Below are positions 1,273 to 5,326 of a stretch of DNA of 12,467 nt, piece by piece. Position 1 is the stretch's first letter, and every line of letters starts with the position of its first letter. The DNA is taken from positions 1 through 12,467 of the IMG/VR virus record IMGVR_UViG_2778261509_000004; one strand, written 5' to 3'. The notes under the pieces were generated by a model. The model saw only the letters and a program-made list of their open reading frames with translations, was not told the DNA's origin and did not search any database. The position numbers and the translations under genes were made by a program. Origin of the DNA: a virus. Taxonomy: Duplodnaviria > Heunggongvirae > Uroviricota > Caudoviricetes.

Positions 1273-2034
1273 TCACTTTTCCGACACAATACGACTGGAG
1301 GAATCGACAATCTGTCGGACAATATCCCGGTGCTTGTTCAGCTCCCGCAGCGCGGCGCAGACTCGCTCCCACTTCTGGACATGATTTTTCGCCCGACGCA
1401 GTTCGCGGTTTGCCATATGCAGCGATGGTAAAACCAGGTCATCCGCTTGCGTTTCAGTAAACGATGGCAGCGACTGCACAATGTCCGCCACAGTTTCTGT
1501 TTTAATATCTTCCTGTGTTGCCGCTTCCTGTACTGGTAACGCAACACCGGCTGGCTGAGGAAAGGCTTTACCATCAGTTTCCGCTACCGATGCAGCTTTC
1601 GGCTCTGCTGGTAAATTATCGCCCGGCATGCAGTAACGAAATTTACCGTTCTGATTAACGCGAATCAGACGACCTTTACTGATTGCCATTGCCAGCGTTG
1701 AAGCCACTTTGCGTGATGTGATGCCGAAAAACGTAGCCAGTTCATCCGCCGTTTGTGGGCCACGTTGTTCAATCGTCGCAGTTAAATCGCACTCCGAAAT
1801 TTTTGCGACTGTTGCCGTGGTGGTTTCTTCCGGCAGTTCTGCCTGCTCTGGCTGTTCCTGCTGAACGTTGTTATCAGCCACGCGCCAGGTGTATACGCTT
1901 TTATCAACGAAGCCAGCCTTTTTCAGTTCCCACAGCTCGTTCAGCACTTCTTCACGACTGATATCAAGTCGCGCAGCCAGTTCTACCGACGTAGCTTTCC
2001 CCATTGCTTTCAGTGCGTCAAAAACAGTCTCCAT
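1273..2034 (-). CDS. hypothetical protein with two putative winged-helix-like segments joined by an acidic linker (253 aa from the ATG at 2034)
   Basis: ORF-track ORF 1273-2085. The ATG at 2034 ([13 protein letters not shown]) is preceded by GGGAGA about 10 nt upstream and leaves a 22-bp gap after the DnaC-like stop. Two segments look HTH-like: [32 protein letters not shown] and [35 protein letters not shown]. The fold assignment is inference from sequence pattern only. Confidence 0.65.
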
Positions 2035-2056
2035 TAAATTTTTCTCCCGGTAAAAA

Positions 2057-2803
2057 TTACTTCGCAATTCCTGGCTGGACGACATTCGGACGCCAGCTCT
2101 CCCAGTTAAAATTCACCCATCGCCCGCCGTTCATGGTCATGCGATCCATAATCCGCTCGCCGAGCAATGTTTTCATGGCCTCATAGTTCAGGTTTGTCAG
2201 CATTCCCACGCTACGCATCGACGCTGTCCGTCGATCAATAATCTGGTGCAGTACCACCTGCTCGTTTTTCGTCTCGCGCTGAATGCCAATTTCATCAAGA
2301 ACCAGCAGATCCACTTCGCACAGTTCCCGCAAAAATTTTTCGCCTGACTGCCCGTCGTCATAGCTGGCGTGGAGGGCACTCATAACATCAGCCACGGTAA
2401 CCACAATCACTGTCTGACCGTCTTTCAGCAGGCGATTCCCGATAGCTGCCGCTAAGTGATTCTTCCCGGTACCAGGTTTTCCGCTGAACGCAAAATTTGT
2501 ACACCCGGTCATCAGTTCATCAGCGATGGATTTCGCCTGACTCAACGCGTATCGCTGCCCTTCGTTCTGCACCTGGTAATTCGAAAACGAGCATTTGCGG
2601 TGCAATGGCTGGATGCCAGAGCGATTCAGAATTTTTTCCACCCGCAACTGACGATTCTGACGGTTGATCTCCTCACAACGTTTCTGGCCTTCGGAAAGTT
2701 GCCACTCGCGCCACTCCGCTACCGTCTTGAATGGCGCGGTTACATGTGACGGGGCCAGTCTGCGGATACGTTCAAGAACGTCGCCTGTCGCAATATTTTT
2801 CAT
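2057..2803 (-). CDS. DnaC-like AAA+ helicase loader (phage replication protein P functional analogue; YdaV-like)
   Basis: Walker [16 protein letters not shown] and Walker [10 protein letters not shown] in the translation, as in DnaC/IstB-family ATPases. GGGGG RBS 9-13 nt upstream. Start lies 6 bp after the stop of the upstream O-like gene, suggesting translational coupling. Confidence 0.9.
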
Positions 2804-2809
2804 GGTCAG

Positions 2810-3598
2810 TTACCCCCTGAAGCCTGGCGGGATCGCACTATCCGGTAACGAGACGGTGTTAACCTGTCGGAGTAACGTCTCAGGTCGAACACCTTTCGGC
2901 GCGAACAAGCCCTGGTATTCGTTGGCGATGCTGTGTCGAATCACCTGCTCAGGTGAAAAACCCTGCTGGCGGAATTTTTCCAGCTCCCGTATCGCCCCGT
3001 TAGCGCCCTGCTCCGTTCGAATCGGTTTTCGCAATGCCTGCCTGAACTGAACCCACTCATGCCAGAGTGTTTCCGGCAACCAGTCAGGCAGCTCGATAGC
3101 CTCCGGTTCGAATTTTTTAGACGCTCGTTTTTGGCGAGGGGGATTTAGGGGGAGATAAGTATTTATATCTTCCTCTTTCTCTTCCTCTGGTAACGCTTTT
3201 TGATCCGTTTTTGTAACGCTGGCAGCGTTACCTTTTCGTTTCAGTTCTCGTATTTTTGTTACTCTCTCGTTTGTAACCGCCCGTTTTTTAGAGCTTTTCC
3301 CGTTATGGCGCTCAAAGTTAGGAAGCGACAACACACCATTAGTTTCGACCAGCCATCCAACCTGAATTAACGCATCAGCAAAACCAGCCATAAAAGTGAT
3401 GCGATCTATTGCACTTTTTGTAACGCCGCGAGCGTTACACTCTGCGTTACCGTCTATCATTTGTTGATCCGCCCATGCCCAGAAGCGAATGACTTTCCCT
3501 AATGCGGCATCTGGATCAATATTCAGAATCTCAGCAAGCCTGAATATTTCCGGCTTATCCGGCGTAATAACTTCGAGCTTTATCCAGTTTGAAGCCAT
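2810..3598 (-). CDS. putative replication initiator / replisome organiser (lambda O-like position; YdaU-like)
   Basis: 262-codon ORF immediately upstream of the DnaC-like gene on the same strand. Two 19-bp palindromes lie inside the coding sequence and a third just upstream, like iterons within lambda O. Function is inferred from synteny and the repeats, not from a recognised catalytic motif. Confidence 0.6.
   Translation of the reverse strand: MASNWIKLEVITPDKPEIFRLAEILNIDPDAALGKVIRFWAWADQQMIDGNAECNARGVTKSAIDRITFMAGFADALIQVGWLVETNGVLSLPNFERHNGKSSKKRAVTNERVTKIRELKRKGNAASVTKTDQKALPEEEKEEDINTYLPLNPPRQKRASKKFEPEAIELPDWLPETLWHEWVQFRQALRKPIRTEQGANGAIRELEKFRQQGFSPEQVIRHSIANEYQGLFAPKGVRPETLLRQVNTVSLPDSAIPPGFRG
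3213..3231. repeat. 19-bp palindrome GTAACGCTGGCAGCGTTAC (copy 1 of 3), candidate origin iteron or operator
   Basis: Perfect dyad GTAACGC-N5-GCGTTAC read directly from the sequence. Extra half-sites nearby: GTAACGC at 3190-3196 and GTAACCGC at 3273-3280. Confidence 0.7.
3420..3438. repeat. 19-bp palindrome GTAACGCCGCGAGCGTTAC (copy 2 of 3)
   Basis: Perfect dyad, same arms as copy 1 with a different 5-bp centre. Followed by an extra half-site GCGTTAC at 3444-3450. Confidence 0.7.
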
Positions 3599-3611
3599 TT
3601 GTTTTCACCTT

Positions 3612-3630
3612 GTAACGCTCGCAGCGTTAC
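3612..3630. repeat. 19-bp palindrome GTAACGCTCGCAGCGTTAC (copy 3 of 3), about 14 bp upstream of the O-like start codon
   Basis: Perfect dyad with the same arms, positioned in the 5' leader of the O-like gene where an operator would sit. Confidence 0.7.
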
Positions 3631-3640
3631 ATTTAACTGA

Positions 3641-3662
3641 TACCGAACAAAACAGTTCGGTA
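3641..3662. other. inverted repeat TACCGAAC-N6-GTTCGGTA in the ydaT / O-like intergenic gap
   Basis: 8-bp perfect arms around a 6-nt spacer, located between the ydaT stop (3676) and the O-like start (3598). No U-tract follows on the transcribed (minus) strand, so a protein-binding site or RNA hairpin is more likely than a terminator. Confidence 0.35.
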
Positions 3663-3675
3663 CGATTAATTTCAA

Positions 3676-4098
3676 TCAATGCACTACGACAGAATCGCTA
3701 GGAGAACCGCCGCCGCTGAAATGCGCTTTCCGGTAAACGGCTTGGACTGCATCATCATGCGCATCAATTGCCGTACTTAACGCTTCCTGCGCCGCCAGTA
3801 ATGCACGGCGTTCCAGGGTATCGAAGATGCAGAGTCGGTGACGCAGCTCGCGCGGAAGGATTGCCAGAATTGCTGGGATCAGCTTCTGAATTTTTTCCCT
3901 TTGCGCATTCGTTTCACCTTTCAACCAACGGTGATAGATATTCTGCTGATTGTTCCAGTCCTTGCCTGGAACCAGGGGCAATTCGCCGCCCCCCTGGCGC
4001 AGATATTCTTCAGTAATTGCATTGGCTACCCATGCCTGCCCTTTTTCGGCTGCCAGGGCAAACAACACCGATTCGATGTGCTCATGCTTGATTTTCAT
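3676..4098 (-). CDS. ydaT: YdaT (Rac-prophage toxic protein, reported as a CII functional analogue)
   Basis: 140-codon ORF whose translation (MKIKHEHIESVLFALAAEKGQAWVANAITEEYLRQGGG...) matches my recollection of Rac YdaT in length and sequence. Lies directly downstream of ydaS on the same strand. Confidence 0.8.
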   Translation of the reverse strand: MKIKHEHIESVLFALAAEKGQAWVANAITEEYLRQGGGELPLVPGKDWNNQQNIYHRWLKGETNAQREKIQKLIPAILAILPRELRHRLCIFDTLERRALLAAQEALSTAIDAHDDAVQAVYRKAHFSGGGSPSDSVVVH

Positions 4099-4120
4099 GA
4101 ATCATTTGCCTCTTGATGTT

Positions 4121-4417
4121 TCAGGTATGATCAAATGAGGATTTGTTACTGTCATTTAGTTGCTTCACTGACATATTCTGCGAACAACATGCCGAACGTC
4201 GTAAATATGACCAGTCAATATCAGGACGAAGTTCTTCGCACAGCACCTCACCTCTTGTTGCACGTTCAATTGCTGGACATCTCTCGGCAGGCAATTGACG
4301 TACCCCTTTGATCCATTGATTTACGCTTGGAGGTGATACACCTAAAAGCCTAGCCATTGCTGTTTGCCCACCGACAACAGCACAAGCTTGCTTGAATGAA
4401 TAGTTCTCTTTTTTCAT
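4121..4417 (-). CDS. ydaS: YdaS, Cro-like HTH regulator (XRE family)
   Basis: 98-codon ORF with an HTH-like segment (FKQACAVVGGQTAMARLLGVSPPSVNQWIKG). GGAG lies 9-10 nt upstream of the ATG. Divergent from racR across an operator-rich 123-bp gap, the classic cro/cI arrangement. Confidence 0.8.
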   Translation of the reverse strand: MKKENYSFKQACAVVGGQTAMARLLGVSPPSVNQWIKGVRQLPAERCPAIERATRGEVLCEELRPDIDWSYLRRSACCSQNMSVKQLNDSNKSSFDHT

Positions 4418-4444
4418 CGAATGAACTCCAAAAACACACAGAGG

Positions 4445-4521
4445 TATTAGGCGACGCCTAATACAAATGTCAATAGGCTATGCCTAATACAATGAGAGTA
4501 GGGATTGCCTAATGCAATGAG
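4445..4521. promoter_or_regulatory. OR-like operator/promoter region between racR and ydaS
   Basis: Perfect 19-bp palindrome TATTAGGCGACGCCTAATA at 4445-4463. Palindrome TAGGC-TAT-GCCTA at 4474-4486. Three direct repeats of GCCTAAT(A/G)CAA at 25-bp spacing starting 4457, 4482 and 4507. On the minus strand there is a perfect -35 TTGACA (plus coordinates 4468-4473), with a weak -10 (TAATAC, 18-bp spacer) overlapping the big palindrome, a plausible ydaS promoter. On the plus strand a TACAAT -10 at 4488-4493 has no good -35, a plausible activator-dependent racR promoter. Confidence 0.6.
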
Positions 4522-4540
4522 CATAGGAGAATATTAAGCA

Positions 4541-5017
4541 ATGCTTAGTGGTAAAGACTTAGGCCGAGCGATAGAGCAGGCCATTAACAAAAAAATCGCA
4601 TCGGGATCCGTCAAATCAAAGGCGGAGGTCGCACGCCACTTCAAAGTCCAACCACCATCAATCTATGACTGGATTAAGAAAGGCTCCATAAGTAAAGATA
4701 AACTTCCAGAATTATGGCGTTTCTTTGCTGATGTTGTTGGTCCAGAGCATTGGGGGCTTAACGAATACCCCATACCAACCCCCACCAATCCAGATACAAA
4801 AAGTGAACTTTTAGATATAAACAACCTTTATCAAGCAGCCTCTGATGAAATAAGAGCGATTGTAGCTTTCCTGTTATCTGGAAATGCTACAGAACCAGAT
4901 TGGGTTGACCACGATGTTCGCGCCTACATAGCAGCGATGGAAATGAAAGTGGGTAAGTATCTGAAAGCTCTAGAATCTGAACGGAAAAGCCAGAACATCA
5001 CAAAAACTGGAACTTAA
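4541..5017 (+). CDS. racR: RacR, Rac prophage repressor
   Basis: 158-codon ORF whose translation (MLSGKDLGRAIEQAINKKIASGSVKSKAEVARHFKVQPPSIYDWIKKG...) matches my recollection of RacR. AGGAGA RBS upstream. Divergent from ydaS. Confidence 0.85.
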   Translation: MLSGKDLGRAIEQAINKKIASGSVKSKAEVARHFKVQPPSIYDWIKKGSISKDKLPELWRFFADVVGPEHWGLNEYPIPTPTNPDTKSELLDINNLYQAASDEIRAIVAFLLSGNATEPDWVDHDVRAYIAAMEMKVGKYLKALESERKSQNITKTGT

Positions 5018-5092
5018 ACTTATATGGTCTGACGGAAAACTCCTGGATTCCGTTATTTAACCCCCCCCATCACTTTCTCCAGTCGCCATCAC

Positions 5093-5157
5093 CTATTAGG
5101 TTACGCTTAAAACATTAGGCATAGCCTATTTACAATCAATTAGGCATTACCTATAGT
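5093..5157 (+). promoter_or_regulatory. OL/PL-like promoter-operator cluster driving the rightward early operon
   Basis: Near-consensus sigma70 promoter: -35 TTTACA (5129-5134), 17-bp spacer, -10 TATAGT (5152-5157). Operator-type motifs overlap it: TAGGC-ATA-GCCTA palindrome at 5116-5128, TTAGG half-sites at 5096, 5115 and 5140. The 15-mer TTAGGCATAGCCTAT (5115-5129) is the exact reverse complement of 4473-4487 in the racR/ydaS operator region. Confidence 0.6.
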
Positions 5158-5326
5158 TCCAGCATACCACCCACCCCGCCCCACAGAACGCCAGGCAATA
5201 CTTCGAGTTACCAGGCAGTGGTCAGGGGTTAAGTAGCCAGCCCGAGGCGTATGAACATGACGGCGGGATTCAAATTTTGCAGTGCAGCAGTTAGTTCCGC
5301 CACCCGGCGTTAAGGGGATAGATAAG

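Follow-up and report, generated by a model that had tools for sequence, protein, structure and literature searches.

A candidate replication origin of phased heptamer sites within the initiator gene of a Rac-like prophage

The initiator gene and its dyads

The DNA analysed here, referred to below as the window, is the 12,467-nucleotide stretch of the caudoviral record IMGVR_UViG_2778261509_000004. This report concerns a set of palindromic sites (dyads) that lie in and just upstream of a replication initiator gene of the Rac-like prophage represented by this record. The initiator gene is encoded on the minus strand, from an ATG at 3598 to a stop at 2810 (2810–3598), and its 262-amino-acid product matches phrog_2509, a 'replication initiation protein' family, over its whole length (E = 5e-88). 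The pattern GTAACGC-N5-GCGTTAC is matched perfectly three times in the window, at 3213–3231, 3420–3438 and 3612–3630, where dinucleotide shuffles predict 0.03 matches by chance; none of 200 shuffles reached three. The single 7-bp word, read as GTAACGC or GCGTTAC, is found ten times, with 1.2 copies expected in the whole window, and eight of the ten lie inside 3190–3630. The first-pass annotation of this DNA had reported three perfect dyads beyond chance, separated by 207 and 192 bp, two of them in the coding sequence and one in the leader of the same gene; the exact pattern count, the spacings and the positions relative to the ATG at 3598 all bear this out.

The sites fall into two intragenic clusters and a leader copy, none of which is assigned a strand. 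Cluster I (3420–3450) consists of half-sites at 3420 (GTAACGC), 3432 (GCGTTAC) and 3444 (GCGTTAC) with 12-bp spacing. It is encoded in the loop at residues 50–60 of the N-terminal domain, a loop of low predicted local distance difference test score (pLDDT) and variable length, and its dyad is translated as C-N-A-R-G-V-T (residues 54–60). Cluster II (3190–3231) is made up of the dyad at 3213–3231, which encodes G-N-A-A-S-V-T (residues 123–129), and the half-site at 3190–3196; as a whole it codes for residues 123–137 of a predicted-disordered interdomain linker. On its sequence, we propose cluster II as the core iteron set of an origin. The leader dyad, TGTAACGC-TCGCA-GCGTTACA (3611–3631), is a perfect match located 13–33 nt upstream of the initiator ATG. 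In minus-strand sense, its 3612–3630 core ends 13 nt before the ATG and 2 nt before the AGGTG ribosome-binding site, and it is a candidate third initiator-binding site and a possible autoregulatory site.

The arms common to the three dyads are 7 bp long. Those at 3420 and 3612 extend to 8 bp (TGTAACGC...GCGTTACA; 3419–3439 and 3611–3631), and the dyad at 3213–3231 extends inward, to 9-bp arms around one central base (GTAACGCTG-G-CAGCGTTAC). Three extra half-sites had also been listed in the first-pass annotation, of which those at 3190–3196 (23 bp from its dyad) and 3444–3450 (12 bp from its dyad) are exact. The third, at 3273 (GTAACCG), was discarded because it has two mismatches and relatives do not keep it. 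We also note a one-mismatch half-site, TTAACGC, between clusters I and II at 3367–3373 (+225 in gene orientation). It is present in one related locus (L010) but not in the family in general, and is probably not functional. Between the ydaT stop codon and the leader dyad there is, in addition, a perfect hairpin with an 8-bp stem, TACCGAAC-AAAACA-GTTCGGTA (3641–3662), which is terminator-like on the plus (antisense) strand only and is found in close relatives (locus L007) but not in more distant leaders.

One base beyond the half-site at 3190–3196 lies a polypurine tract (3168–3188, minus strand), the coding strand of which reads AGAGGAAGAGAAAGAGGAAGA. It is followed by an A+T-rich stretch at 3152–3167 (coding strand GATATAAATACTTATC, no strand assigned). 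The G+C content over 3140–3199 is 0.35–0.375, the lowest in 2800–3660, with strong strand skew; only the leader at 3640–3679 is lower. By analogy with known origins, the tract at 3168–3188 is proposed as a DNA-unwinding or helicase-entry element.

The initiator itself is modular, as separate PHROGs match its N-terminal and C-terminal halves. It consists of a winged-helix-like N-domain (residues ~10–98), a disordered basic/acidic linker (residues ~99–159) and a C-domain that it has in common with K-12 YdaU. The first-pass annotation had called it O-like; it is not a member of the lambda O family: no Pfam family matches the 262-residue protein at E ≤ 0.01 or any of five distant relatives at E ≤ 1, only PHROG 'replication initiation protein' families are matched, and the match to the 'O-like' phrog_678 is confined to residues 76–236. 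The N-domain likewise has no match in NCBIfam or in a profile search of PDB sequences. In the AlphaFold2 (AF2) model the N-domain shows two long helices followed by a helix-helix-hairpin arrangement, which is winged-helix-like. Both intragenic clusters fall in low-confidence segments of this model (the loop at residues 49–60 and the linker at 99–159), and these are segments where, judging from the model, the protein can tolerate codons dictated by DNA.

Conservation and phasing of the sites

Conservation was assessed by pooling counts over 86 distinct homologous loci. A cluster I dyad is present in 82 of the 86, at +148 or +160, and a cluster II dyad in 81, at +340 to +412; 80 loci have both intragenic dyads and 13 have the leader dyad. 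The distance between the dyads of the two intragenic clusters ranges from 184 to 264 bp. Exact half-sites number 451 within −120 to +450, as opposed to 24 in four times as much flanking DNA. When adjacent half-sites are compared, the spacing is 12 bp in 162 cases, 11 bp in 31, 22–24 bp in 48 and 33 bp in 14. From these spacings, the unit is a 7-bp word that recurs about once per helical turn, sometimes as a direct and sometimes as an inverted repeat, and relatives carry up to six phased half-sites in cluster II. The first-pass annotation had described the sites as more isolated than they are: each dyad belongs to a cluster of half-sites phased at 11–12 bp, and a separation of about 200 bp between the two intragenic clusters is kept throughout the family.

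The same arrangement is found in distant relatives. Four phages with ~68% DNA identity in the gene (BUCT554, ST11-OXA245phi3.2, TL-2011b and ZX5) keep both intragenic dyads with perfect arms and a 209-bp spacing. Both are also kept in 11 prophages of eight genera (Rouxiella, Serratia, Yersinia, Rahnella, Pectobacterium, Pantoea, Erwinia and Samsonia), the proteins of which are 59–72% identical to the window initiator. Many of these 11 also carry the leader dyad, at −32 to −44, and in the Serratia, Yersinia, Pantoea and Erwinia relatives it is the sole conserved block in otherwise unrelated leaders. The DNA of 80 further viral contigs, with G+C contents of 0.37–0.63, confirmed the presence of the dyads; over the 86 distinct loci, the arms are kept across this range and down to ~40% protein identity.

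The conserved arrangement extends into the tract. Anchored on the linker, the consensus reads GTAACGC-N5-GCGTTACAAAA(A)sCGTTAC-C-AGAGAAGAGAAGAGAAGAG..., followed by A+T-rich DNA, which in relatives is likewise a TATAAA-type stretch. The junction GTTAC-C-AGAG followed by a polypurine repeat is family-wide, most members having (AGAGA)n and the clade of the window (GAGGAA)n; subfamilies whose iterons differ retain the tract as well. Within the tract, 89 of 90 arginine codons are AGA (14% elsewhere), so that the peptide 'EKRREE' or 'EEEEED' simply reflects an element of the DNA. We note that the conserved peptide 'ALPEKRREE' or 'VTREEKRREE' is the translation of GCGTTACC followed by (AGAGA)n, and that a 5-nt repeat read in three frames gives a 5-residue period, R-E-E-K-R.

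The coding dyads could in principle have arisen merely because the protein requires a conserved, repeated peptide, G-N-A-x-S-V-T, to function, and this peptide does recur in almost every family member. Among 147 N-domain representatives with at most 50% mutual identity, the motif x-N-A-x-x-V-T occurs near residue 50 and a second time near residues 110–130. The codons, however, are difficult to reconcile with such an origin. Synonymous positions in the codon alignment vary to saturation over the gene as a whole (modal codon frequency 0.3–0.7), whereas the arm codons are invariant (GGT 13/13, AAC 15/15, GTT 13/13 and TTA 13/13; Fisher p = 1e-4). All 190 instances of the motif have G, C, S or R ahead of 'NA', four residues with no shared chemistry that are precisely those with NGT codons. 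At the fifth position, 81% of instances have S, G, C or R, the residues with NGC codons, and 15 different amino acids are found at the centre codon. Relatives also differ in how the distal dyad is translated: one group reads G-N-A-A-S-V-T and another, shifted by one frame, V-T-R-T-A-L. Finally, a copy stands in the noncoding leader, and the peptide is located in a low-confidence loop and linker of the model. We therefore give the peptide explanation almost no credence.

Similar considerations apply to the idea that the palindromes act as hairpins in mRNA, in translational control, processing or termination, rather than as sites in DNA. The leader dyad would fold into a stem of at least 8 bp 5 nt before the Shine–Dalgarno sequence, and the dyad at 3213–3231 scores as terminator-like on the antisense strand. 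Among 46 close haplotypes, however, the centres mutate freely while an arm is changed in only 2 of 138 dyads, and compensatory changes are never seen. Many family members, moreover, have direct repeats at 12-bp phasing and lone half-sites, which would be unable to pair, and no Rfam family is matched. A role as RNA hairpins is accordingly most improbable. The frozen synonymous positions in the arms, the free centres, the two reading frames and the copy in unrelated leaders instead lead us to conclude, from sequence comparison, that the dyads are selected as DNA, independently of the protein. The first-pass annotation had stated that its reading would be refuted by homologous prophages in which the protein is retained and the dyads are gone; the opposite was found, as the protein drifts and the arms stay fixed.

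The words, the N-domain and the surrounding genes

The initiator N-domain defines a large family. A profile search returned 7,833 cluster representatives (50% clustering) at E ≤ 1e-3 and 1,190 at E ≤ 1e-30; the full family was seen by this exhaustive profile search, and a word-seeded protein search reached only relatives with at least ~60% identity. Its members are labelled variously as 'primosomal protein I', 'DNA replication domain protein', 'replication protein O' or 'hypothetical', and for the family of 7,833 representatives we found no Pfam or NCBIfam model and no relative in the PDB. The word GTAACGC is common to Enterobacterales prophages, Xanthomonas phage CP2 and metagenomic phages with G+C contents of 0.37–0.63.

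More distant members have other words. The initiator of phage epsilon15 is a true homologue of the window initiator (31% identity, E = 3e-26), and its gene carries GTCCGC words arranged as > > < <, with C-AGAGAAGAG... after the final word. In phiPSA1 (Pseudomonas), RPZH6 (Ralstonia) and Carin1 (Cobetia), too, GTCCGC is found at the linker position; the word of the Ralstonia phage Raharianne is GTCTACA and phage Eline has yet another, so that Ralstonia phages carry different words among themselves. The C-AGAGAAGAGAAG junction is kept in epsilon15, phiPSA1, RPZH6 and Raharianne, Carin1 being the exception. An N-proximal copy or cluster stands at +54 to +77 in epsilon15, phiPSA1 and RPZH6 (not in Carin1), compared with +148 in GTAACGC loci. 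In contrast, no neighbouring gene is constant: YdaT-like, YdaV-like, DUF1627 and C-domain partners are each found in only some of the dyad-carrying loci. As far as the sequences can tell, the sites follow the initiator N-domain and not the host or the neighbouring genes.

These comparisons bear on whether the dyads are instead operators for another protein, such as the cII-like YdaT, the 270-residue DUF1627 protein with two helix-turn-helix (HTH) motifs, RacR/YdaS or a host transcription factor. The neighbourhood does encode several HTH proteins, and palindromes with a 5-bp spacer would suit many dimeric regulators. A host factor is unlikely, because a single word is found across a wide range of hosts and G+C contents, in Enterobacterales and Xanthomonas phages alike, while the words differ within Ralstonia phages. 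As for the neighbours, the YdaT-like, DUF1627 and YdaV-like genes are each missing from many loci that keep the dyads, and the epsilon15-like neighbourhood is quite different. YdaT and the double-HTH protein had been put forward as possible binders in the first-pass annotation; both are unlikely, since the YdaT site differs and neither gene travels with the dyads. Taken together, we regard a binder other than the initiator as very unlikely.

The footprinted YdaT site is TTGATT-N6-AATCAA, also written ATGATT-N6-AATCAA (PMC9986795, PMC11879457). The dyads do not resemble it and were ruled out as YdaT-boxes; the box occurs separately at 4088–4105, where TTGATTTTCATGAATCAT, the reverse complement of the footprinted K-12 box ATGATTCATGAAAATCAA, overlaps the ydaT start codon. 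Because of this identity, the cII-like autoregulatory and PracR4-activating site (PMC11879457) is, by its sequence, intact in the window prophage. A weaker repeat of this type, ACGATT-AATTTC-AATCAA (3662–3679, two mismatches), overlaps the ydaT stop codon in the initiator leader. The window contains four YdaT-box matches with at most two mismatches where 1.1 would be expected, and the copy at 3662–3679 may be due to chance.

The surrounding genes have the Rac-type early-right layout, with racR on the plus strand (4541–5017) and the ydaS/cro-like gene (4417–4121), the ydaT/cII-like gene (4098–3676) and the DUF1627 double-HTH gene (open reading frame 1273–2085) on the minus strand. Directly downstream of the initiator gene is ydaV (2057–2803, minus strand), which encodes a DnaC-like helicase loader (PF01695, IstB_IS21, E = 4e-20; NF005931, DnaC, E = 6e-92; phrog_50) and the product of which is the presumed partner of the initiator C-domain. 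Counted from its longest ATG, the DUF1627 reading frame shares 29 nt (2057–2085) with the 3' end of ydaV; the PHROG match of its product starts at residue 18, so translation probably begins further downstream. At the extreme C-terminus of the initiator, 19 residues (residues 244–262; 2810–2866) weakly match the C-terminus of host primosomal DnaT (NF002770, E = 0.003, far below its cutoff). Other members of the family have a full DnaT-like single-stranded-DNA-binding domain (PF17948), and the sequences of these tails hint at a primosome-type loading of the helicase. A prophage of E. coli ST2747 matches the window with 100% identity and the phage records vB_EcoS-666R9, -673R7 and -613R10 match it with 99.7%, and the replication module is present at near-full length in ~680 of 5,426 complete E. 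coli genomes.

The first-pass annotation had linked the dyads to the Rac prophage and its origin, oriJ. The prophage is indeed Rac-like, and it resembles K-12 Rac in its gene order (racR, ydaS, ydaT, initiator, ydaV) and in the DNA of the initiator C-domain and ydaV, which is 94% identical. It is not the K-12 allele, however. In a blastn comparison with K-12 the flanks at 1585–3183 and 3678–5200 match with 94–97% identity, whereas 3184–3677 has no match. This segment (no strand assigned) comprises the leader, the N-domain coding region and all three site clusters, and is an exchangeable cassette that replaces the K-12 Rac sequence. K-12 YdaU has an unrelated DUF1376 N-domain joined to the same C-domain, and the 4-kb K-12 ydaU locus contains no GTAACGC or GCGTTAC word. 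The window sites were therefore rejected as K-12 oriJ and cannot be compared with a mapped oriJ. In K-12 the ydaU linker (locus L005, 2011–2076) has repeats of its own, three copies of TGTTCAAACA / TGTTTGAACA that are 23 and 33 bp apart and lie beside an A+T-rich stretch. On their sequence, these TGTTCAAACA repeats are natural candidates for K-12 oriJ iterons. The origin oriJ is cited as active (PMC3945230) and a paper listed in PMC11014345 studied it as a plasmid; in the searchable literature oriJ is mentioned only in passing and we found no sequence-level map.

A proposed origin and its comparison with known systems

The reading that we favour, with a probability of roughly 0.8, is that the dyads are binding sites of the prophage's own initiator and together form an origin inside the initiator gene. 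An origin is suggested because the half-site arrays adjoin the polypurine and A+T-rich tract in linker-coding DNA. The first-pass annotation had likewise read the dyads as initiator-binding origin repeats in an O-like gene, as in lambda, and possibly as an operator too, and this core reading is supported by the comparative evidence for selection at the DNA level, for arrays beside the tract and for a word that changes with the N-domain.

By this reading, the winged-helix-like N-domain would recognize the 7-bp word GTAACGC; a pair of such words, placed head to head at a distance of 12 bp, would provide a dyad for a dimer, and further words at 11–12-bp or 23-bp phasing would extend each cluster. 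By analogy with known origins, initiator bound at cluster II (3190–3231) would open the duplex at the adjoining polypurine tract (3168–3188) and A+T-rich stretch (3152–3167), after which the initiator C-domain, with its DnaT-like tail, and DnaC-like YdaV would load host DnaB. Cluster I (3420–3450) and the leader dyad (3611–3631), each about 200 bp further upstream, might be auxiliary sites that enlarge, wrap or loop the complex, and the leader dyad might also allow the initiator to damp read-through transcription of its own gene, as a roadblock or autoregulatory site. These last are the least certain steps.

An origin located inside the initiator gene is a classical principle. In lambda and the Shiga-toxin (Stx) phages, four to six iterons and an A+T-rich tract lie within gene O, in lambda in the middle of the gene; the O protein forms the O-some, and two iterons beside the tract suffice for unwinding (PMC7466680). 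The proposed origin is similar in that it would lie in the part of the initiator gene coding for the link between a DNA-binding N-domain and a loader-recruiting C-domain, has dyad-symmetric sites with an A+T-rich, strand-asymmetric tract beside the last of them and is followed by the gene for a helicase loader. As in lambda, related phages exchange the N-domain together with its sites as a single cassette, here with boundaries at 3184 and 3677. The differences are considerable. The window initiator is not a detectable homologue of lambda O, and only its C-terminal half matches the 'O-like' PHROG. Its sites are 7-bp words at 11–12-bp phasing in two intragenic clusters ~200 bp apart plus a leader copy, whereas those of lambda are contiguous 19-mers. 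The element proposed for unwinding consists of a strict polypurine repeat, the loader resembles DnaC rather than lambda P, and GTAACGC is common to a very wide range of phages instead of being private to one.

The iteron plasmids offer a second comparison. Their Rep proteins (F RepE, R6K pi, pPS10 RepA and RK2 TrfA) bind direct iterons at the origin and contact single-stranded DNA of the DNA-unwinding element (PMC4081077, PMC10602881). The window prophage and its relatives resemble them in using one word both as direct repeats (three or four in a row in relatives) and as inverted repeats, one of which is just upstream of the initiator gene, and the DnaT-like PF17948 C-domain of some family members would fit contacts with single-stranded DNA in an opened tract. 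The initiator has no Rep_3 or WH1-WH2 signature, as indicated by the lack of any Pfam match, and its AF2 model shows one winged-helix-like unit. Unlike those of the plasmids, moreover, the sites are inside coding sequence, no promoter is predicted over the leader dyad and the repeat unit is 12 bp rather than 17–22 bp.

A further parallel is the epsilon15 replication protein ('DNA replication protein' or 'primosomal protein I'), with a homologous initiator and phased words, the last followed by C and AGAGAAGAGAAG.... It differs in the GTCCGC word, in the location of the N-proximal cluster (+54 to +77 compared with +148 to +172), in its DnaT-like C-domain and in its neighbourhood, which is quite different. 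No published epsilon15 origin was found in the literature.

Several points weigh against the origin that we propose. The roles given to cluster I and the leader dyad are guesses, and heptamers in clusters 200 bp apart are unlike the contiguous 19-mers of lambda. The covariation of word and N-domain is drawn from about five word classes, and the word never changes within the large GTAACGC subfamily, where fine-grained covariation is accordingly lacking; as the sites are inside the N-domain coding region, their co-inheritance is physically forced, and only the change of word between subfamilies is informative about the binder. The AF2 model of the initiator is moderate (mean pLDDT 64; ~80 for the N-domain), and a Foldseek search against the PDB returned only non-significant MarR-type winged-helix matches (E ~0.5), so that the label 'winged helix' is taken from the AF2 topology only. 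In the literature we found no report of binding, unwinding or autonomous replication for any member of the initiator family. A scan of 3100–4600 for sigma-70-like promoters gave predictions only near ydaS and none near the leader dyad, and for this reason a classic operator role of the leader dyad is unsupported.

The only serious rival is a purely regulatory role, in which the initiator does occupy the dyads, though only for autorepression, titration or handcuffing-type copy control, while replication starts elsewhere in the prophage. The leader dyad does lie just upstream of the ribosome-binding site, and the clusters are 200 bp apart, not contiguous. In iteron plasmids, inverted half-iterons at the rep promoter act as the operator. 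The distribution of the sites runs the other way: the intragenic clusters are near-universal and the leader copy is found in 13 of 86 loci, the best-conserved arrangement is a half-site abutting the polypurine and A+T-rich tract, which is the anatomy of an origin rather than of an operator, and no promoter is predicted at the leader. We therefore consider regulation without origin function unlikely.

The tract invites one further suggestion in addition to the favoured reading of an initiator-bound origin. As a homopurine mirror repeat, it could adopt H-DNA or give rise to an R-loop. Conceivably, the sense-strand (AGAGA)n, which is one base away from the last iteron in nearly all members examined, is a purpose-built opening device, acting through an unusually stable R-loop of the initiator gene's own transcript (purine RNA on pyrimidine DNA) or through H-DNA under supercoiling, so that transcription would be coupled to firing and the initiator arrays in clusters I, II and the leader would wrap ~400 bp to position the opening. 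We offer this tentatively and consider it doubtful. If true, it would represent a new and very widespread type of origin in which constraints on DNA wrote the peptides G-N-A-x-S-V-T, A-L-P and E-K-R-R-E-E.

Our literature searches found no description of an origin for this initiator family, of its shared 7-bp word, of the two- or three-cluster layout, of the invariant (AGAGA)n tract or of the codon-dictated peptides. The family spans phages of Proteobacteria with thousands of representatives, for which no Pfam model, solved structure or described origin was found; the present analysis assigns to this replication module a concrete candidate origin (3150–3631) and a recognition word. K-12 Rac and the window prophage carry different origin cassettes, and work on oriJ is not transferable between them. 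The family offers a clear case in which constraints on DNA sites dictate protein sequence, with amino acids picked by their codons, and this bears on annotation, on the reading of 'conserved motifs', on recoding and on the design of synthetic phages. Lastly, because the GTAACGC word is shared, prophages of this family that reside in one host are predicted to show cross-talk or incompatibility.

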